A DNA stretch of 39,003 nucleotides, taken from the IMG/VR virus record IMGVR_UViG_2563366825_000018. The stretch is one strand, 5' to 3'. A program made the translations under genes and the position numbers. Origin of the DNA: a virus (lineage: Duplodnaviria > Heunggongvirae > Uroviricota > Caudoviricetes). The notes beneath the pieces were generated by a model that was not told where the DNA came from, did no database searches, and saw only the letters and a list, made by a program, of their open reading frames with translations. Each line of letters starts with the position of its first letter. The stretch's first letter is position 1. Positions 1,136 to 36,383 of the stretch are shown here, piece after piece.

Positions 1136-2812
1136 CTAAGCAACATGTAGTTCATCGTTGGCGGAAGTGGCTGCTTTGCGCTCCTGCTCAATAGCTAGAG
1201 ACTCTCTATATTCTTTCGCCTCTGCAAACATTGTCCAGTGGGCGTTGATGTTCATGTCTTCAATAACTGATTTGATTTCTTTTAAATTTACGTTAAAAAA
1301 CTCTTTTCGTGAGCTAATTTTATTGACCTGCTTTTCGTTGAAAACTTTATGCAGATGGTTTTCTAATGATGGTGCATCATCACTATAAATCATCGCATGA
1401 ACATCGAACGAAAAAGGAACACTAGCATCTCCGAGTTCACGAACACGATCAAGTGGTTCAAGGCGGCGTGTCATTCCAATTTTATATACATCTTCGCCAA
1501 ATGAACCAATATTACTAATGATATAGACGTGGCCTGATCTGGTTTGTTGAGCCATAGAAATAGCTCGTTGATTTTTAGCTTCAGCTTCTTCATATTTTAA
1601 CTGTAGTTCAGCTATTTTTTGCTCTAAAGCTAAGCGTTGTTCTTCATTTGCAAGCATAAGTTCTTTCGTTGCTTTATTTATAGCTTGCTGAATAGCTTTT
1701 TCTTCTTTTTCAGCTTCTTTTATCGCTTTTTCATATTCTCTACGAGCTCTTTCCTCTTCACGAAGCTGTTCTTTAATCCTTCTTTGCTCTTCTTTTTCTT
1801 CGAGCATAATTTCATTAACTGCTACACCCCATTTTAGCTCGTTGAGTCTTGCCTGAAGATAGATGTCACTTATTTTTGCGGACCTAAAGGCAGAGCCATT
1901 GTAATTTACTAGTTGAAATGCATCTTTTATTTCTTGGGAAAGTTTTCCAAAATTGTTGTGTTTGACTTTTGATAAAATACTGTCAACTCTTCCATTGAAG
2001 GCATCCAAAACAAAGTTTATGGCAGTATTACGCCTGTTTTGCTCAACATAATCACACGAAGCAGCTTTATTAGTTTTTATTAATGATTTGGTTAACTCTC
2101 TGGCTTTTTGTAATTCCTTGCCTGCATCTGTAAATTCATAATTTTCTGCCAGTTCATCAAGTACACTACGGTTAGGGATGATCCATTCATCACCATAACC
2201 TTCAATTTTATTTTTCATTGATTTTGCAACTGCTTCATATTTTTCTGCAAACTCTTTAGCTTCATATGCTGAACCAGCAATCTCCTTTGCTCTTTCTTCT
2301 GCATCAGAAATAATTTTTACTGCATTGTCATTAGCATTTGAGATTAGCTCATTTGCTTTATTATTAGCATTATCAAGACGTTCTTTGGCTTTCAGGCGTG
2401 CATCGCGAGCGTCTTTGGTGATTGCTATAGCTTCGCTATTAGCGTTGCTTATTGTCATCTGAGCTTGATAATTTGCTTCGTTTACTGTTTTAGCCGCCTT
2501 AATTTGGGCTTCATCTATTTTTTGCTTGGCTATTGAGTCCGCATTTTTTATCTTATTCTCTGCATCCATTACTGCGCTGTGCAATTCTTCGTATTGCCAC
2601 AATGGTGCTGCTCGCCCTTCAAGCTCTGATAATTCTCGTACGGTCTGTGCTAGTTTTTCTTGATTTTCAATCAGTTGGTTAGAAAGGGCTATGTTGTTAG
2701 CTGTCAGGTTATCTATAGCCGCTTTGTGTTTTTTACTTTGTTTAAATAATATTACAGCTAGAACAGGGGCGAGAAATGCTAATAAGAGTATAACGATGGC
2801 AAATGAATTCAT
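1136..2812 (-). CDS. membrane-anchored coiled-coil protein with DUF4041-like region and C-terminal T5orf172 (GIY-YIG-like) domain; accessory gene
   Basis: 558 aa; N-terminal TM helix, about 150 aa of Ala/Lys/Glu-rich coiled coil, C-terminal GHVYIISNIGSFGEDVYKIGMTRRLEPLDRVRELG motif; AGGA-type RBS 7 nt before the ATG; sits 20 nt downstream of cI on the same strand; AT-rich. Confidence 0.75.
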   Translation of the reverse strand: MNSFAIVILLLAFLAPVLAVILFKQSKKHKAAIDNLTANNIALSNQLIENQEKLAQTVRELSELEGRAAPLWQYEELHSAVMDAENKIKNADSIAKQKIDEAQIKAAKTVNEANYQAQMTISNANSEAIAITKDARDARLKAKERLDNANNKANELISNANDNAVKIISDAEERAKEIAGSAYEAKEFAEKYEAVAKSMKNKIEGYGDEWIIPNRSVLDELAENYEFTDAGKELQKARELTKSLIKTNKAASCDYVEQNRRNTAINFVLDAFNGRVDSILSKVKHNNFGKLSQEIKDAFQLVNYNGSAFRSAKISDIYLQARLNELKWGVAVNEIMLEEKEEQRRIKEQLREEERARREYEKAIKEAEKEEKAIQQAINKATKELMLANEEQRLALEQKIAELQLKYEEAEAKNQRAISMAQQTRSGHVYIISNIGSFGEDVYKIGMTRRLEPLDRVRELGDASVPFSFDVHAMIYSDDAPSLENHLHKVFNEKQVNKISSRKEFFNVNLKEIKSVIEDMNINAHWTMFAEAKEYRESLAIEQERKAATSANDELHVA

Positions 2813-9686: not shown

Positions 9687-10346
9687 TTATGATTTCATTT
9701 TTTCGAATTTATTTTTTTGCAAAACAATATCTGTAGCTTCAATGGATTTTTTAAGTGAATCTAAAAGACGTTGACGTCTCTTAATTTTAGAGAAAGAAAC
9801 CCTCATAGCAGCCTCTTGTTTGGGCTTGATGTCCACCAGTACATAATATGGTTTTCTGGCTCCGCGCTTAATGTTGTTACGCTTAAAACCTTTTCCTCTA
9901 ATCGAAGCATTGGAATCAGCGATTTGTACAGGTAAAAACTCAAAACCACGTGTCGTCACTTTTGAACGAAATCTTTTAAATATTCTTGGTTCATGCTGTG
10001 CTCTCTTTGGTGTAGTCGAAAATAAAAAATGTTTCACGACAGTGGATTTTATCTCAGGATATTTTTCGAGATATTTTGAATTCAAGAGTGAGATGAATTT
10101 TTCAACTGGACTTATGTCAAGGTAAGAGCCGAACTTACTCTCAAAATACTTATCAAAGCTTTGGTTTTTATTATCATTAACAAACTTTGAAATATCAATT
10201 AGAAGTTCTTTCACGCCATTCTGACCAACTTCAGAAAGATATAAATCAATAATCTTTCCAAGATCATCTGAATCAAGTTCGCATGCGGTATCTTGATTGA
10301 AGTAGGACCGTATGAAATTATCTAGTTTAGTATATTCTTTTGACAT
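9687..10346 (-). CDS. hypothetical protein, acidic N-domain and very basic C-terminal half; second gene of two-gene cargo operon
   Basis: 219 aa; AT-rich; start 3 nt after upstream gene stop; C-terminal KRNNIKRGARKPYY, KIKRRQR stretches suggest nucleic acid binding. Confidence 0.7.
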   Translation of the reverse strand: MSKEYTKLDNFIRSYFNQDTACELDSDDLGKIIDLYLSEVGQNGVKELLIDISKFVNDNKNQSFDKYFESKFGSYLDISPVEKFISLLNSKYLEKYPEIKSTVVKHFLFSTTPKRAQHEPRIFKRFRSKVTTRGFEFLPVQIADSNASIRGKGFKRNNIKRGARKPYYVLVDIKPKQEAAMRVSFSKIKRRQRLLDSLKKSIEATDIVLQKNKFEKMKS

Positions 10347-10349
10347 ATA

Positions 10350-10814
10350 TCACCCCTTAACAGGATATGCAGTGAGGATGAAATGAGGCATTCCGTTAAA
10401 ATTTCCAACTTTCATAACTAAATTAATTCTTTTTGCAGTTAATATATTGTTTGGATCATCACGTTCAACGTAAGTGCCTACATCCTGTTCAATGTCTAAT
10501 TCCCTTGAAAATCTAACATCTGCGCGATTGGGATCTTTATACCACTCTGTAAATTCCATAAGAAATGAATTGAACCACTCGGTAGCTGATAGTTCTGCAA
10601 CTGATAAGTTTGTAAATGTTGAAGATACACGGAGTTTAGGAAATCGACCTATCAGGTAATTGGCATCCTTGCCAACATGTCTTCTAATTGTGTGTCCACC
10701 AGGTCCAGAATCCGAAGCTGCTTCATGAACTTTCAATTTGACGGGAGAGTATCCTGAGGAGTTTACTGTTGTCGATGTTGTAGCATGCTGTAGTTGTGAT
10801 GTAGAAGAAAACAT
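10350..10814 (-). CDS. hypothetical protein with GHTIRRHVGK motif; first gene of two-gene cargo operon
   Basis: Start ATG with GGAGGG RBS (internal to track ORF 10350-10865); 154 aa; no family confidently recognised. Confidence 0.65.
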   Translation of the reverse strand: MFSSTSQLQHATTSTTVNSSGYSPVKLKVHEAASDSGPGGHTIRRHVGKDANYLIGRFPKLRVSSTFTNLSVAELSATEWFNSFLMEFTEWYKDPNRADVRFSRELDIEQDVGTYVERDDPNNILTAKRINLVMKVGNFNGMPHFILTAYPVKG

Positions 10815-11073
10815 GTTCACCCTCCATGTTTTAGAATTGAGGTACAGTATATCGACGCTGCACATAACTTGTTTAAATATTTAGCCCTATGGTACACAAC
10901 CATATTGCTTTTTATGCTGTAACTTCTGCTCTTCGTCCACAGCGGATTTTTATCGTTGTAAACCAGTATGTTTCGTTTTTCAAGCAGTTATCCGATAGGG
11001 ATTTTCACTTCCCTTGGCAGCGCATGACTATGCTGCATGAATCCGCATGATCGTTTGAGGATCGTTTTTGCTG

Positions 11074-11215: not shown

Positions 11216-13162
<1,947 letters not shown>

Positions 13163-14232: not shown

Positions 14233-15995
14233 AAAATCTCCACAATATTGCTGGTATTGGCGGACTCGCCCTGCAGCGGTTCGTTAAACAGTGCGTGCAT
14301 TGTTGCCCAGGCCAGATCGGCATGGCTGGCTTCTTCGCTGCGGCTGGCTTCATAGGTCGGGCGGTTGCCACTGGCAGTGGTAGCGCGACGGATTGCCATA
14401 AATGACTGCGCAATGTCGGTGTGCCCGGCGTCAAACTCCAGACGGCGGTGGCTGATAATGTCGTAGGCCTTGAGTACCAGGGCGTTTTTAACGTTGGGGT
14501 TATAGACAAACTCCCTGACGGCAGGAAAAAACGCTTTCACGTTCTCGTAAACCCCGTGACCGACGCCGGTCGAGTCGATACCGATATAGGTCACGTTATA
14601 CTGTTCGGTCAGTTTTTTGATGGCGTCAGCCTGGGCGCGGAAGTCCATCCCGCGCCACTGGTGACGCTCAAGAATGCGGAACTTACCACCCGGCACGGCT
14701 GGCGGAGCCACCACCACGCATCCGGCACTGTCGCCGTTCTGCGTACCTTTTGCCGGGTCATAACCGATCCACACTTCGCGCCAGCCAAACGGGCGCAGGG
14801 CCAGTGCATGAAAGTCGGTCCAGACTTCCCAGCTGTCCACCATGCACGCCTGCAGTTCGCTGAGCGGGAACACGGACGCGAGATCGTCCACGAACTCGCA
14901 CATCAGCAGGTTCTGGTATTCGTCCGGGCTGTACTCCATGCGCAGCTGGTCGAGGTCGAACAGGTTACAGCCGCCGCGCACCGCATCTTCCACGGTGACT
15001 ATCTGGCGGTATTGCCCGTCTGCGCACAGCAGGCCGGGGGCCAGATTGCTGTGGGACAGGTCGATGTCCACCTTGTCAGCTTTGTTGCGTCCACGGTTGA
15101 ACAGCGCACCGGACCAGAACGGATAAGCACTGTGGGTCAGGCTGGATGGCGTGGAAAAATAGGTTTGTCGCCATTTCTTGTGAATAGCCATCCCGGAAGC
15201 CACTTTGCGCAGCTCCTGGAATTTCGGTATCCAGAAATATTCATCCAGATACAGGTTGCCATGATAACTCTGGGCCGTGCGGGCATTGGTGCCGAGGAAG
15301 TAAAGCGTGGCTCCGTTAGGAAGCACCATCGGATCGCCTTTTAGCTCCACCTCGACTTCTTTGGCGAAGTCGATGATGTATTGTTTAAAGACGTGGGCCT
15401 GAGCCTTACTGGCAGAAAGGAAAATCTGGTTACGTCCGGTAAGCAGGGCGTCAATCAGGGCTTCACGGGCAAAATAGAAGGTCGCGCCGATCTGGCGAGA
15501 CTTCAGCAGGTTGCGGATGCGGTTGGTTTTTCCGGCTTCCCACCAGTGGCGCTGGTAGTTGAACATGGAGGAATGGAAGATTTCTTCCAGCTTCTCAATC
15601 TGCTCATCGGTGAAAACATTCTTTTCCGGCTGACGGCGCGGGCCTTTGTTGCGGTTGGCGACGTTAGGGTTTAAGTCGGCTTCGTTGCCGCCATTGTTAA
15701 ACTTGCCGATCCGCGCGTGGCGCTCCGACTGGCGCGCCAGCAGGTCAATCTCTTTGAAATCTTTCCCTTCTTTGTGCTCCTTCATGATGAGCTGGCAGTA
15801 GCGTGCGGCGGTGGTGAGCTGCATCTGATCCAGCGGCCCATAGTCACCCCACTTGTCGCGTTTTTTCCAGCTGTGAACGGTTGCAACTTTCTCGCCCAGC
15901 ATTTCAGCAATGCGGGCTACGCGGTATCCCTGAAAGTACAGCAGCATGGCCTGCCGACGGGGATCGAGATCTGCGGGTGTCAGTGTGGTGTTCAT
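14229..15995 (-). CDS. P: terminase large (ATPase) subunit (gpP)
   Basis: 588 aa, P2 P-like; stop overlaps Q start. Confidence 0.92.
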   Translation of the reverse strand: MNTTLTPADLDPRRQAMLLYFQGYRVARIAEMLGEKVATVHSWKKRDKWGDYGPLDQMQLTTAARYCQLIMKEHKEGKDFKEIDLLARQSERHARIGKFNNGGNEADLNPNVANRNKGPRRQPEKNVFTDEQIEKLEEIFHSSMFNYQRHWWEAGKTNRIRNLLKSRQIGATFYFAREALIDALLTGRNQIFLSASKAQAHVFKQYIIDFAKEVEVELKGDPMVLPNGATLYFLGTNARTAQSYHGNLYLDEYFWIPKFQELRKVASGMAIHKKWRQTYFSTPSSLTHSAYPFWSGALFNRGRNKADKVDIDLSHSNLAPGLLCADGQYRQIVTVEDAVRGGCNLFDLDQLRMEYSPDEYQNLLMCEFVDDLASVFPLSELQACMVDSWEVWTDFHALALRPFGWREVWIGYDPAKGTQNGDSAGCVVVAPPAVPGGKFRILERHQWRGMDFRAQADAIKKLTEQYNVTYIGIDSTGVGHGVYENVKAFFPAVREFVYNPNVKNALVLKAYDIISHRRLEFDAGHTDIAQSFMAIRRATTASGNRPTYEASRSEEASHADLAWATMHALFNEPLQGESANTSNIVEIF

Positions 15996-16041
15996 GGCAC
16001 AAACCTACAGTCTTGAATGAAGGCTTTCCCCGCCTGCGGTT

Positions 16042-16059
16042 TGTGTGGTTGTCGGTACA
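16042..16059. promoter_or_regulatory. late promoter Ogr-binding dyad (TGT-N12-ACA) in the divergent P/O region
   Basis: TGTgtggttgtcggtACA read from sequence, about 80 nt upstream of the O start codon. Confidence 0.6.
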
Positions 16060-21108: not shown

Positions 21109-21502
21109 AGCGGTGCCTTATGTCCGCAATAACCCGGACAAACTGCATCTGTTTGTGGATAACGGTTCGCTGGTTGCCACGGGGGCCAGCTCCATGTCGT
21201 GGGAGTACCGTTACACCCTGAACGCGGTGATTGAGGATTTCAGCGGCGACCAGAATCTGCTGATGGCCCCGGTTTTGCTGTGGCTGAGGGATAACCAGCC
21301 CGATGCCATCAATAACCCGGCGTTACGGGAAAAACTATTCACCTTTGAGGTGGATATTCTGCGCAACGATGTCTGTGATATCAGCCTGAACCTGCAACTG
21401 ACGGAGCGTGTGCTGGTCAGCACTGACGGCAGTGTGTCGAGCGTTGAAGCTATAGCGGAACCTGATGAACCTGAAGAAATGTGGACGGTGAAACGTGGCT
21501 GA
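21071..21502 (+). CDS. R: tail completion protein R
   Basis: GTG start with AGGAG RBS within track ORF 21050-21502; P2 R-like. Confidence 0.8.
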   Translation: MNKPQSLRHALNKAVPYVRNNPDKLHLFVDNGSLVATGASSMSWEYRYTLNAVIEDFSGDQNLLMAPVLLWLRDNQPDAINNPALREKLFTFEVDILRNDVCDISLNLQLTERVLVSTDGSVSSVEAIAEPDEPEEMWTVKRG

Positions 21503-21944
21503 ACTGCAGAAAGTGGACGACTGGCTGAGTGCCTTGCTGGCGAATCTGGAACCAGCCGCCAGAAGCCGCATGATGCGCCAACTGGCGCAGGAACTTCGCC
21601 GGACACAGCAGCAGAATATCAGGATGCAGCGCAACCCTGACAGCAGCAGCTATGAACCGCGACGGGTAACAGCACGCAGTAAAAAAGGCCGTATCAAACG
21701 TCAGATGTTTGCAAAGCTGCGCACCACAAAATACCTGAAAACTGCCGCCAGCACCGACTCTGCCAGCGTGCAGTTTGAAGGCAAGGTGCAGCGCATTGCC
21801 CGCGTTCACCATTACGGCCTGCGAGATCGCGTCAGTCGTAAGGGACCGGAGGTGCGTTATGCAGAGCGGCAGTTGTTAGGTTATAACGATAAAATTTTGT
21901 CATTATCGCAAGACGTATTATTACGTGCTTTGGTTGATAGCTAA
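21495..21944 (+). CDS. S: tail completion protein S
   Basis: 149 aa; P2 S-like. Confidence 0.85.
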   Translation: MAELQKVDDWLSALLANLEPAARSRMMRQLAQELRRTQQQNIRMQRNPDSSSYEPRRVTARSKKGRIKRQMFAKLRTTKYLKTAASTDSASVQFEGKVQRIARVHHYGLRDRVSRKGPEVRYAERQLLGYNDKILSLSQDVLLRALVDS

Positions 21945-21949
21945 GCTAA

Positions 21950-22876
21950 TCAAAACAATCTCAATAAATTATGATCAATCGTAAGCAAGTTGGAGATAAC
22001 AAGTTTGCTATTATCAATATTGAATTTTTCTAATATTGCTGCTACAGCACTGGGGTAAGGTTGTGAAGCATATGGAGAAATGTATATTTTTTCGATTAGC
22101 TTTACAGGATCTGTTTTTATTCTTATCCCCTTGGGAGTATAGTTTTCGATGTCGCTATTAATAATTTTTGGTGTTATGGATAAACGTACTTCATTTTCAT
22201 GTGAAAAAGCTTTTCGTTTTAAAAAAGGAACCATTCTTCCGTTCACGACGCAATCTTCAGATGTTAGTTTTTCATCGAAATAATCAATGTATTTTACTTC
22301 ACTAATAGAGATAATCTCTTCAGATTGAAGTGAATCTATCAAGCGTGATATTGATGTTTGAATTGCTATTCCTTTGTTAGCATCTGAATACAAACGCCAC
22401 ATTCCTTCTGACTCATGTTCATTTTGATGCCAACAATTCACTGTGACGGAGTTTAAAATCTTAAAATAGATAGATTCTATTTTTGGTAATTGTGTATCCA
22501 TCATTGTTTGCAACTTGGTGATTTCTGTTTCGGCTTTTTCATTAGAGATTCTGCCTAATAGTTCGTTTTCCCTGATACGCTCTACGGTATCATTGAAATA
22601 TGATTGTATATCATTAAATTTACTTTTGACGATGCTTGCCCATGCATTTAAGGCAACCTTAGGTAATAACCCCTCATATGGATCGCTATTGCTGTAAGAA
22701 CTAAGCGGAGAAAAATATAGCTCTTCTCTGGATAATATATCGATGAATTTATCAAGAGACATATAGCGCCACAGTTTTGTTTCAGGTTTTAAATTTGGAC
22801 TAATTTGGAATTTATTCATTGTTTTTTTATCAGCATTGTATAGTGAGTGATACAAACCGCAATATTTATACTTCAT
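21950..22876 (-). CDS. DUF2971-family protein, accessory gene inserted antisense between S and V
   Basis: LWRYMSLDKFIDILSREELYFSP, CWHQNEHESEGMWRLYSDANKGIAIQ and KRKAFSHENEVRL fit DUF2971 signatures; AT-rich; start at ATG 22876 with GGGGTG RBS (alternative ATG at 22819). Confidence 0.75.
   Translation of the reverse strand: MKYKYCGLYHSLYNADKKTMNKFQISPNLKPETKLWRYMSLDKFIDILSREELYFSPLSSYSNSDPYEGLLPKVALNAWASIVKSKFNDIQSYFNDTVERIRENELLGRISNEKAETEITKLQTMMDTQLPKIESIYFKILNSVTVNCWHQNEHESEGMWRLYSDANKGIAIQTSISRLIDSLQSEEIISISEVKYIDYFDEKLTSEDCVVNGRMVPFLKRKAFSHENEVRLSITPKIINSDIENYTPKGIRIKTDPVKLIEKIYISPYASQPYPSAVAAILEKFNIDNSKLVISNLLTIDHNLLRLF
22837..22854. promoter_or_regulatory. late promoter dyad TGT-N12-ACA upstream of V
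   Basis: TGTatagtgagtgatACA; overlaps the 5' end of the antisense DUF2971 ORF if that ORF starts at 22876. Confidence 0.5.
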
Positions 22877-22901
22877 AATCACCCCATGTCAATCTATAGG
22901 C

Positions 22902-23480
22902 ATGAACTCACAACTCACAGAAATCATGCGCCTTATCACCAATCTGATCCGCACTGGTGTAGTCACCGAAGTGGACCGGGAGAACTGGCTTTGCCGTGTG
23001 AAAACGGGCGAGCTTGAAACCAACTGGATCAGCTGGCTGACGCTGCGTGCCGGGCATGCCCGCACATGGTGGCGACCATCGGAAGGTGAGCAGGTGGTGC
23101 TGCTGAGTCTGGGCGGAAATCTGGAAACAGCCTTTGCGCTGCCCGCCATCTATTCGAATCAGTTCGCACCACCGTCGGCGTCGGCGGACGCCTGTGTGAC
23201 AGAACATCCTGATGGCGGCTGGTTTGAATACGAACCCGCCACCGGGCGCTGGTATGTCAGGGGCATCAAATCCATGGTCATTGAGGCCGACGACAATATC
23301 ACCCTGAAAACCAGTGAATTTGTGCTTGAGGCTGATCGCACACGTATTAACAGCGAAGTGGTGATCAATGGTGGCGTTACCCAGGGCGGCGGTGCGATGA
23401 GTTCTAACGGGATCGTGGTTGATGCGCATCAGCATACTGGCGTTCAGAAAGGTGGCGACACCACCGGAGGCCTGGTATGA
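22902..23480 (+). CDS. V: baseplate assembly/spike protein V
   Basis: 192 aa; P2 V-like. Confidence 0.9.
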   Translation: MNSQLTEIMRLITNLIRTGVVTEVDRENWLCRVKTGELETNWISWLTLRAGHARTWWRPSEGEQVVLLSLGGNLETAFALPAIYSNQFAPPSASADACVTEHPDGGWFEYEPATGRWYVRGIKSMVIEADDNITLKTSEFVLEADRTRINSEVVINGGVTQGGGAMSSNGIVVDAHQHTGVQKGGDTTGGLV

Positions 23481-26738: not shown

Positions 26739-27158
26739 ATGGACAGATACTTCTATTCACAAAAAGAAAATGGTTTTTTTACCGATTTAAATAAAGCACC
26801 TTCAGATGCTGTTGAGATAACCACGGATGAATGGCTGTTACTACTGGATGGTCAGGATAATGGCATGAAAATAGTCAGCAATCAGGAGGGATATCCGGTT
26901 TTGACAGAGCAACCACCTTTATCAAAAGAAAACCTTATTGCATTGGTGGAGTTGAAAAAAAGAAAACTTATTAATGAAGCCAACGAGCACATGAACAGCA
27001 GACAATGGCCAGGTAAAGCGGCTATTGGTCGTCTGAAAGGTGAGGAACTGGCGCAATATAATTTATGGCTGGATTATCTGGACGCACTGGAACTGGTTGA
27101 TCCCTCCAGTGCTCCAGATATTGAATGGCCTACGCCTCCGGCAGTTCAGGCCAGATGA
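26739..27158 (+). CDS. G: tail fibre assembly protein (gpG/Tfa), cassette in expressed orientation
   Basis: 139 aa; C-terminal WPTPP motif. Confidence 0.88.
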   Translation: MDRYFYSQKENGFFTDLNKAPSDAVEITTDEWLLLLDGQDNGMKIVSNQEGYPVLTEQPPLSKENLIALVELKKRKLINEANEHMNSRQWPGKAAIGRLKGEELAQYNLWLDYLDALELVDPSSAPDIEWPTPPAVQAR

Positions 27159-27732
27159 CATCCGGTGCGGTGCTGGTATCTGTTGCCGTCACCGCGTCAA
27201 TGTAATCCAGCGCAGCGTTAAGTCGGGCGGTTTCTGCCTGCGTCAGATTTCGTCCGGCCTGTAATTTCAGTTGAATCAGACTGATAGAAGCCATTGCTGT
27301 ATCAATCAGCGACTGGCGCTGTGCTTCTGCTGCATCTACTACGGCGCTATGCTGTGCCTCGGTATCCGTCACCCATTTCTCACCATCCCATTTATCGTAT
27401 GGCGTTAACGGGGCGATAGTGGTTGTATTATCAGGGTAATCACCCGGTGCTGTGATTTCTTTTGATTCTCCTGTTTCGGTGCTAAAGACAATTTCACCGC
27501 GATGGTCTGGTACATATTCCCATGAGTTAAAATCTGCAGAGCGGCAGATTGCATAACCAGCTTTGTAGGTGCCTGGAGCATCTAAACAGGAATATGCCGG
27601 AATGCCGACACCAACAGCAAGATATTCAGTTGAAGCTGAAATATACTCCCGACTCATGACGTCAAAGTTATAAACAGTAATTTCTCCTGCCATAGTGGCA
27701 ATTAATTCACTGTTTAATTCTGCGTTATTCAT
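27130..27732 (-). CDS. alternative tail fibre assembly protein (silent orientation)
   Basis: 200 aa; C-terminus ...DTSTAPDVIWPELP matches Tfa end motif; convergent with G. Confidence 0.8.
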   Translation of the reverse strand: MNNAELNSELIATMAGEITVYNFDVMSREYISASTEYLAVGVGIPAYSCLDAPGTYKAGYAICRSADFNSWEYVPDHRGEIVFSTETGESKEITAPGDYPDNTTTIAPLTPYDKWDGEKWVTDTEAQHSAVVDAAEAQRQSLIDTAMASISLIQLKLQAGRNLTQAETARLNAALDYIDAVTATDTSTAPDVIWPELPEA

Positions 27733-28237
27733 TATGCAGCCCTCACAATATAGTTAAAAGCGACATTTCGTGGGCGTGTTTCATTCGCACCTGCAGGTTT
27801 AGTCGTTGCCGCAACAACACCACCCTCTGTAATAGCCGGGTTAGGAATTGGGTAATTATCGAAGTCAATGGCCGGAGACAGGGGCGTGATTTGTTTTAAA
27901 ATCGTGGTGCCTGTAAAACTTTCCAGAGTCTGGTCGTTAGTTCGTGAAGTCCAGATTCCCCAATAGTGGTTATGACTGACAATCGCACCGTCCTGAAGCG
28001 TTAATAATCCCCTTCCGTTATCCACTCCACGTCCGTCATCCCAGCCACGAATAAACTCACCGCGTAAATCAGGCAATTTATTTGTCGGGTAAGCCTTTGC
28101 CAGTTCCGGGTATTCTTCAGCAGAAAAAGCCGCACCATTGCATTTCAGCCAGCCTGTCGGCGGAGTGGCGGAAGGCCACGGAACAGGCACACCAACAGGT
28201 AATGCAGAGCCTTCTCCCAAACCAACGTTTAAGAAAA
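27732..28237 (-). CDS. alternative tail fibre C-terminal cassette (promoterless; fuses to H constant region after inversion)
   Basis: Track ORF 27732-28265; residues IFLNVGLGEG are encoded by the crossover site and match LTYLGLGE in H. Confidence 0.75.
28212..28237. repeat. right inversion crossover site (gix/pix-like)
   Basis: ttctcccaaaccaacgtttaagaaaa, about 55 nt upstream of the invertase start; inverted relative to 26362-26387. Confidence 0.7.
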
Positions 28238-28292
28238 TGCAGCGATTACGACTAACTGGCATCATCCCCGGTTTTTATTCAGGGGATTGATC

Positions 28293-28859
28293 ATGCTTAT
28301 TGGCTATGTACGCGTGTCAACAAATGACCAGAACACCGATTTGCAACGTAATGCACTGAACTGCGCGGGATGTGAGCGGATTTTTGAGGACAAAATCAGT
28401 GGCACTAAGTCCGACAGACCGGGGCTTAAAAAACTGCTCAGGACACTATCGGCAGGTGACACACTGGTTGTCTGGAAGCTGGACAGGTTGGGGCGCAGTA
28501 TGCGGCATCTCGTTACGCTGATAGAAGATCTGCGCCAGCGTGGCGTGAATTTCCGAAGCCTGACTGACAGTATTGATACCAGTACCCCAATGGGCCGTTT
28601 CTTTTTTCATGTCATGGGGGCCCTGGCTGAAATGGAACGCGAACTGATAGTTGAACGTACCAGGGCAGGGCTGGCTGCAGCTCGCGCCAAAGGCAGAGTA
28701 GGTGGACGCCGTCCTAAGTTGACTACCGAACAGTGGGCACAGATTGGACGTTTACTCGAGGCCGGAGAATCAAGACAGCGTATTGCACTGATTTTTGATG
28801 TGGGCGTTTCTACCATTTATAGAAAATTTCCGGCGAATGAGAACAATGAATCGCCCTGA
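28293..28859 (+). CDS. pin: serine DNA invertase (Pin/Gin/Hin/Cin family)
   Basis: MLIGYVRVSTNDQNTDLQRNAL...DTLVVWKLDRLGRSM...PMGRFFFHVMGALAEMERELI is near-identical to my recollection of e14 Pin; catalytic Ser in YVRVST. Confidence 0.93.
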   Translation: MLIGYVRVSTNDQNTDLQRNALNCAGCERIFEDKISGTKSDRPGLKKLLRTLSAGDTLVVWKLDRLGRSMRHLVTLIEDLRQRGVNFRSLTDSIDTSTPMGRFFFHVMGALAEMERELIVERTRAGLAAARAKGRVGGRRPKLTTEQWAQIGRLLEAGESRQRIALIFDVGVSTIYRKFPANENNESP

Positions 28860-28907: not shown

Positions 28908-28925
28908 TGTGTGAATAACGACACA
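28908..28925. promoter_or_regulatory. late promoter dyad TGT-N12-ACA upstream of FI
   Basis: TGTgtgaataacgacACA, about 77 nt upstream of the FI ATG. Confidence 0.6.
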
Positions 28926-36224: not shown

Positions 36225-36271
36225 CAACAAAAAACCCATCAACCTTGAACCGAAATGGCGGGGTTGATGGG
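36225..36271 (-). terminator. rho-independent terminator downstream of ybjL
   Basis: 10-bp stem cccatcaacc/ggttgatggg with T-run on the minus strand (plus strand caacaaaaaa). Confidence 0.55.
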
Positions 36272-36383
36272 CTCCACAAAATGGGGACATCAAAGAAAAG
36301 CAGTGGCACTAATTAAGACTGATGCCCTGCGGAAAAGTTCTGCGGTTGTGCAAAAAAATTTCATTTTCAGGGCAACTTCAGTT

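Follow-up and report, generated by a model that had tools for sequence, protein, structure and literature searches.

A DUF2971 gene antisense between the tail genes S and V of a P2-like Escherichia coli prophage is a candidate single-gene phage defence system

Between the late tail genes S and V of a 186/P2-like Escherichia coli prophage, contained in a stretch of viral DNA of 39,003 nucleotides (herein referred to as the window), lies an antisense gene (21950-22819, minus strand, 870 bp) whose 289-aa product was assigned to the Pfam family DUF2971 and to the PADLOC entry PDC-S31 by profile searches, alignment of the family and a structural model. This is a real, intact and selected cargo gene of a known family, and it is well worth testing but does not amount to a new kind of genetic element. 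Its role is probably that of a prophage-encoded defence against other phages, which would act through NAD+-dependent ADP-ribosylation.

In order from the left edge of the window, the prophage comprises an integrase, a CI-type repressor, the replication gene A, genes for portal/terminase, capsid and lysis, and R, S, V, W, J, I, H and tail genes, followed by D and ogr (an ogr-like gene is annotated in a near-identical prophage). Host ybjL and the gene for the host sRNA RybB (36226-36304, minus strand; Rfam, 105 bits) are found at the right end of the window, with RybB lying between the prophage, whose right end it adjoins, and ybjL, such that the attachment site borders an sRNA gene. The gene gpS (21495-21944, plus strand; Pfam Phage_tail_S, E 4.1e-37; phrog_26) encodes the tail completion or virion morphogenesis protein and is the last of the upstream late operon, and gpV (22902-23480, plus strand; Pfam Phage_base_V and Apex) encodes the baseplate spike and is the first of the V late operon. 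The GC content of the interval between them is 0.32-0.38 (0.328 in the coding sequence itself) versus ~0.55 in the flanks. Judged by this composition the gene is foreign, and we regard it as horizontally acquired cargo placed antisense between S and V; the sequence-only reading of this DNA had correctly proposed as much.

The extent of the coding sequence required revision. The longest minus-strand frame runs from 21950 to either a GTG at 22882 or an ATG at 22876, and the sequence-only reading took the latter, of 927 bp, as the gene; this is indeed the longest ATG frame, and its spacers of 5 nt and about 25 nt were given correctly, but it is not the coding sequence. All 44 homologues aligned with the window protein (45 sequences in total) start at the ATG at 22819 (the methionine of MNKFQ), and homologues among the 120 matches listed are mostly 283-296 aa in length and cover ~93% of the 308-aa query. 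The additional 19 codons are interrupted in the Citrobacter orthologue by a stop located two codons ahead of the start, and in Pantoea unrelated sequence takes their place. We therefore place the coding sequence at 21950-22819, 5 nt from S and 82 nt from V, and reject the 308/310-aa reading; the nonconserved upstream extension (22820-22882, minus strand) is most likely a 5' untranslated region. Automated PGAP annotation has adopted both versions (870 bp in E. coli GPEC1189 and 927 bp in E. coli 21AR0133).

Membership in DUF2971 (PF11185), suggested in the sequence-only reading from signatures, was upheld by a profile search that returned 32.3-33.5 bits against a gathering cut-off of 22, and all 45 aligned family members match the same model. 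The protein also matches PDC-S31 directly (PDLC04993, E 3e-24, 83.6 bits, and three further PDC-S31 models), which is itself a computational candidate defined as a single gene; the window gene is likewise stand-alone, with no partner. NCBIfam returned no match for the protein, a lenient Pfam search (E<=5) of the 45 members retrieved only DUF2971 and no DarT/DUF4433, AbiGi or ADP-ribosyltransferase (ART) model, and a search of PDB sequences with the family profile gave only noise. In a profile search the family numbers 12,373 cluster representatives (50% identity) with a cut-off of E<=1e-3, or 2,337 if E<=1e-30 is required; almost all of its proteins are stand-alone and 240-300 aa long.

The AF2 model of the protein (mean pLDDT 92.9, pTM 0.85) shows a core of mixed alpha/beta structure into which a long hairpin of two helices (~70 residues, 54-124) is inserted; this hairpin is the least conserved part of the 45-sequence alignment. 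The modeled core can be superposed on DarT, and DarT entries (PDB 7omv and 7yk3, at ~10-13% identity) account for five of the top six Foldseek matches, though only at E-values of 0.06-0.9; a fold search of BFVD gave weak matches to uncharacterized viral and phage proteins only, and no ARTs of the T4 Alt/Mod type. In ARTs, the catalytic motifs surround the NAD+ pocket and consist of H or R on beta1, Y or S-x-S on beta2 and E or ExE on beta5. Across the 45 diverse homologues 31 residues are invariant, including W17-R18-Y19 (first core strand), D46-P47-x-E49-G50, C129-W130, S137-E138, Y144, K201-R202 and H207-E208-x-E210-x-R212 (where a strand begins), and in the AF2 model R18/Y19, S137-E138...Y144 and E208-x-E210 lie on or beside core strands. 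E208-x-E210 is predicted from the model to be an ExE motif at the position where ARTs have their catalytic glutamates. In agreement with the model, DUF2971 has been assigned independently, by published bioinformatics, to the ART superfamily, near DarT and AbiGi and with unusually large helical inserts (PMC12522546).

We hence predict a DarT-like ADP-ribosyltransferase fold for a protein that is not a member of the DarT family. Indeed, the protein has no match to the Pfam DarT model, and because no link to DarT models is detectable at the sequence level, the likeness is confined to the fold, into which the 70-residue helical hairpin is inserted. DarT modifies thymidine in single-stranded DNA and is paired with DarG in the DarTG system, whereas a DarG macrodomain partner is lacking beside the window gene and beside its counterparts at six orthologous loci.

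In every P2-like prophage examined, the orthologues (42-85% identity) lie in the S-V slot, always antisense and intact. They are found in Kluyvera (60%), Citrobacter (59%), Pantoea (55-56%) and Yersinia enterocolitica (42%) and on two contigs without an assigned taxon; the closest of the divergent alleles (locus L093) is 85% identical and a Logan contig 45-47%. All are AT-rich (33-37% GC), and no conserved partner gene is present in the six S-V contexts. For the two pairs with unsaturated dS, dN/dS is 0.27 (window versus the 85% allele) and 0.07 (Kluyvera versus Citrobacter), and from these sequence comparisons we consider the gene to be intact and under purifying selection. Intact frames at 42-99% identity also agree with the expectation in the sequence-only reading that a genuine gene would be conserved as such in related prophages. 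Within a set of 80 further homologues (<=46% identity), drawn from genomes sampled once per species, the association with the slot is not seen, as not one of them adjoins gpS or gpV, although the Logan and Yersinia orthologues, at 42-47% identity, do occupy the S-V position. Most of the family is found outside phages, on chromosomes or plasmids, archaea included (for example, on plasmids of Bacillus, Acinetobacter and haloarchaea). One homologue, from Stutzerimonas (40% identical), lies beside HEPN_AbiV and a NERD-UvrD helicase, with a PAAR gene nearby. A tblastn search of a phage collection produced one distant match only, from an Acinetobacter phage, and the GenBank phage isolates lack the gene.

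The sequence-only reading considered the location of the gene unusual, and in this it was mistaken. Phage P2 (NC_001895) carries an antisense gene at exactly this position, a minus-strand "Orf30; nonessential" that separates S from V; the feature annotated as "activator binding site; activation of pV promoter" comes directly after it, ahead of V, whereas in phage 186 and Escherichia phage 500465-1 the site is empty (69 and 68 bp, respectively); the comparison with P2 and 186 that had been called for thus gives one occupied and one empty junction. The corresponding site of phage Cartapus holds a different antisense ORF of 176 aa. The S-V region is present in 1049 of 5426 complete E. coli genomes, only 10 of which carry the DUF2971 gene, and this scarcity, together with the empty site of most relatives, disposes of the alternative, named in the sequence-only reading, that the gene is a conserved structural component. 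In an evenly spaced sample of 50 E. coli matches containing both flanks, the slot is empty in 30 and occupied in 20 (~40% with cargo), with occupants that include TIR, SIR2, FRG, DUF5677, DUF6216 and several hypothetical proteins, each as single-gene cargo; among ten fetched loci the cargo is antisense in eight, and the TIR and SIR2 genes are sense. The DUF2971 gene shares the properties of this slot, being flanked by the stop codon of gpS and the PV activator site, variable among close relatives and foreign in composition. On these sequence comparisons, the S-V position is a known, if understudied, variable slot of P2-like phages.

PADLOC identifies the TIR cargo as PDC-S66, the SIR2 cargo as ThsA/LmuA-like and the FRG cargo as PDC-S15; however, 7 of the 11 sampled cargo types have no PADLOC match, so that occupancy of the slot is by itself only weak evidence for defence. 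Neither P2 Orf30 nor the Cartapus ORF is matched in PADLOC, and P2 Orf30 has no Pfam match. P2 orf30 and the DUF2971 gene share their slot, antisense orientation, AT-richness and non-essential character and are both followed by the Ogr-dependent PV activator site, but the encoded proteins are unrelated: a homology to P2 Orf30 was considered and rejected, given a best BLASTP E-value of 1.0. By analogy with P2 old and tin (between A and Q) and fun (Z/fun, between G and FI), the DUF2971 gene is probably likewise a lysogenic-conversion or exclusion gene; unlike those cargo slots, the S-V slot holds single genes only. The variability of the slot has been recognized before, as a study of phage R18C compares "ORF30" contents between S and V (PMC6823313). 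In the sections covered here, the P2 analysis of Rousset et al. (2022) is confined to the A-Q locus. A 2026 NAR study of P2/P4 refers to minor hotspots "within the tail genes"; the terms orf30, gpS, gpV, baseplate and DUF2971 occur in neither paper.

Comparison of occupied and empty sites suggests that the S-V cargo is exchanged as a swappable cassette of ~1 kb, at about 21869-22901. DNA identity to the empty-site phage 500465-1 ends after "...GCAGAGCG" in the 3' end of S, with the left edge of homology at ~21869-21880 (BLAST pieces stop near query position 469-480) while its right edge coincides exactly with the V ATG (BLAST pieces resume from 1502-1503 of the query, 22901-22902 of the window). 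The last 20-25 or so codons of S (21869-21944, plus strand) thus form an AT-rich, cassette-borne left recombination joint. Each of the cargo variants compared (the window and loci L001, L002, L086, L088 and L091) ends gpS with a different stretch of ~20 residues, and since this tail is replaced with each cassette and is different every time, the C-terminus of gpS appears to tolerate almost any sequence. The 46-48 nt between the late-promoter dyad (see below) and the V ATG are likewise completely different between variants, and we infer from both ends that the S tail and the PV promoter are supplied by the cassette itself in each case. The proposal that the insertion preserved the V promoter consequently holds insofar as the dyad is retained; what occurred is rather the swapping of a cassette with its own S tail and V promoter region.

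Late promoters of P2 that depend on Ogr/Delta/B contain a partial dyad, TGT-N12-ACA, centered ~55 nt upstream of the start. In the window such a dyad, a probable Ogr/B activator site of PV, is present as an exact pattern match at 22837-22854, precisely where the sequence-only reading had placed it, with its center 56.5 nt upstream of the V ATG (the annotated P2 site is centered 55.5 nt from the V start). That reading had put the dyad within or just upstream of the 5' end of the gene; it is upstream, and with the revised coding sequence ending 17 nt short of it there is no overlap. The pattern alone is not above chance (11 matches in the window versus 10.6 expected), but 4 of the 11 sit at the four expected P2 late-promoter sites: that of PV, two in the P-O intergenic region at the expected PP/PO positions (15984-16001 and 16042-16059) and one upstream of the sheath gene FI (29002) at the expected PF position (28908-28925). 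The offset of the dyad from the V ATG is moreover fixed in 20 of 22 S-V junctions (the window and loci L001-L004 and L086-L109), and the dyad is conserved in the orthologue alignment (A3); P2 and 186 themselves have imperfect dyads. The significance of the dyad hence derives from its position at late-promoter sites and its fixed offset, not from pattern frequency. The stretch from the dyad to V has 21-49% GC in 16 of 17 antisense-cargo variants and 55% in empty sites, the exception being the Yersinia variant at 70%. Ahead of the FI dyad, at the Z/fun position, lies an invertible tail-fibre-assembly region (26739-28859) of two opposed Caudo_TAP genes and a tail-collar fragment, with an adjoining Resolvase/HTH_7 DNA invertase (28287-28859).

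A putative sigma-70 promoter for the DUF2971 gene (22865-22892, minus strand), which overlaps the PV core promoter divergently, consists of TTGACA (22892-22887), a spacer of 16 nt and TATAAA (22870-22865), an 11/12 match to consensus (scored by script) in the right place and orientation; a promoter scan that requires T at position 6 of the -10 hexamer passes over this TATAAA. Transcription leftward would start near 22858, judging from the promoter sequence, and the dyad would then occupy approximately +4 to +21 of the cargo mRNA. Neither scanning nor folding detected an intrinsic terminator between S and the convergent cargo gene (z -0.7 and -0.9). Given this lack of a terminator and the overlap of the promoters, one would expect the gene to be silenced in the prophage's own lytic cycle by late transcription and by the binding of Ogr. 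Only the E. coli allele has a strong leftward promoter; in the orthologues its conservation is partial or weak, which keeps this regulatory model conjectural.

We hypothesize that the gene serves defence, of a superinfection-exclusion or abortive-infection type, which we consider its most probable role from the PDC-S31 match, the TIR, SIR2 and FRG genes that share its slot, the other defence modules of the prophage and an antisense orientation that is compatible with expression in a lysogen. The other modules occupy separate hotspots. A PD-Lambda-1 gene (1136-2812, minus strand, 558 aa, AT-rich; PADLOC E 6e-119; DUF4041 and T5orf172/MUG113 domains) lies between the integrase and the CI repressor (the int-C slot) as a second defence module of the prophage, and a type I-C retron RT-Toprim gene (11222-13162, plus strand; PADLOC E 6e-217), upstream of which Rfam matched no msr/msd, is found at the gpA-gpQ (old/tin) hotspot together with genes for a CdiI_2-like immunity protein (9687-10346, minus strand) and a CdiA-CT RNase-A-like toxin (10350-10865, minus strand). 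An E. coli 21AR0133 prophage at the same rcdA/ybjL attachment site has an S-V cassette 99.9% identical to that of the window and carries a YdcA-family gene in place of PD-Lambda-1 and HipA plus a HIRAN protein in place of CdiA-CT/CdiI and the retron, indicating that the hotspots assort independently.

If the gene is a defence gene, it would be transcribed in the lysogen leftward from its own sigma-70 promoter, antisense to silent late operons. Infection by another phage would activate the enzyme, which would use NAD+ to ADP-ribosylate a nucleic-acid or protein target and would thereby block phage gene expression or replication, possibly along with host growth. Late development of the prophage itself may shut the gene off, through binding of Ogr to the dyad, occupation of PV by RNA polymerase and transcription reading in from the S operon. 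One consideration against a defence role is that a stand-alone toxic ART without an antitoxin would need some control mechanism.

The closest functional parallel is Aristaios, a 316-aa single-gene DUF2971 protein encoded by the Lactococcus plasmid pUCCL641 (Grafakou et al. 2024, PMC11381338), for which abortive-infection-like resistance with reduced phage transcription has been validated (PMC11381338, PMC13064643). Both are single, stand-alone, mobile-element-borne proteins of ~300 aa with a Pfam DUF2971 domain and a predicted ART-like fold, and the similarity rests on that shared domain only. Aristaios belongs to a plasmid of a Gram-positive host and has experimental phenotypes, whereas the window gene belongs to an enterobacterial P2-like prophage and is known from sequence and a model. 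No Lactococcus record is among the 40 of 253 plasmid tblastn matches listed, and our literature search found no paper that mentions PDC-S31 and no experiment on the window protein or any PDC-S31 member.

The ART-like fold could also be put to other uses. T4 Alt, ModA and ModB modify RNA polymerase and other targets, and an ART that serves the prophage's own lytic growth or induction, by host takeover or counter-defence, would suit a phage-borne gene that is tightly tied to one slot across several genera and has weak structural relatives among uncharacterized phage proteins. We nevertheless give this explanation only a small chance: the orientation of the gene opposes both flanking late operons, and it is situated behind rather than under the Ogr-dependent promoter; it is missing from ~99% of related prophages, its slot neighbors are genes of the TIR/SIR2 type, the fold search gave no match of the T4 Alt/Mod type, and most of the family lies outside phages, archaea included. 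An addiction or selfish toxin module that stabilizes the prophage, or an effector delivered by contact or secretion that harms competitors or eukaryotic cells, is also improbable. The closest fold, DarT, does belong to a toxin-antitoxin toxin, ~18% of DUF2971 proteins are predicted effectors (PMC12522546) and such a role has been proposed for Legionella DUF2971 proteins, and both the CdiA-CT/CdiI-like pair of the same prophage and the PAAR gene near the Stutzerimonas homologue are suggestive. Against this, the spacers (5 nt on the S side, 82 nt on the V side) leave no room for an antitoxin, no partner gene is conserved in the six orthologous contexts, the protein is a stand-alone one of ~290 aa throughout the family, and the Pfam search of the 45 members matched no secretion-associated or transmembrane domain.

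The rarity of the gene in E. coli (10 of 5426 complete genomes), the non-essential annotation of P2 orf30 in the same slot and the many slot occupants without a recognizable domain might instead indicate a functionless or decaying hitch-hiker, that is, AT-rich foreign DNA tolerated at a permissive intergenic site. Conservation largely refutes this, and we judge it very unlikely: all orthologues, which range from 42% to 99% identity, have a full-length and intact frame, dN/dS values are 0.07-0.28, 31 residues are invariant in 45 diverse homologues and the predicted fold is of high confidence.

Defence thus being the reading we favor, its several elements can be joined into a broader proposal, which we put forward tentatively and consider doubtful as a whole. 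The S-V junction would be an underdescribed hotspot of single-gene immune cargo, in which each cassette carries its own S C-terminus and PV, and the leftward promoter would be interlocked with PV such that the dyad falls in the early transcribed region; an ART-type defence gene would accordingly be on in lysogeny and off when Ogr fires the late genes. Were this so, the prophage's own lytic cycle would be protected from its own toxin, and the DUF2971 enzyme would be an antitoxin-free relative of DarT whose helical hairpin would act as an infection sensor or autoinhibitor.

In its behavior, the classic P2 "orf30" position resembles the old/tin and Z/fun hotspots, which are better known, and a slot that holds TIR, SIR2, FRG, DUF2971 and at least seven unknowns is a compact place in which to mine single-gene defence candidates. 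To our knowledge, the only tested member of the DUF2971 family is the Lactococcus protein. The window gene (870 bp plus ~90 bp of native promoter) is an easily cloned E. coli representative of this very large and almost uncharacterized family, and work on it could help to decide whether the family consists of DarT-like immune enzymes that act alone, and which targets they modify.
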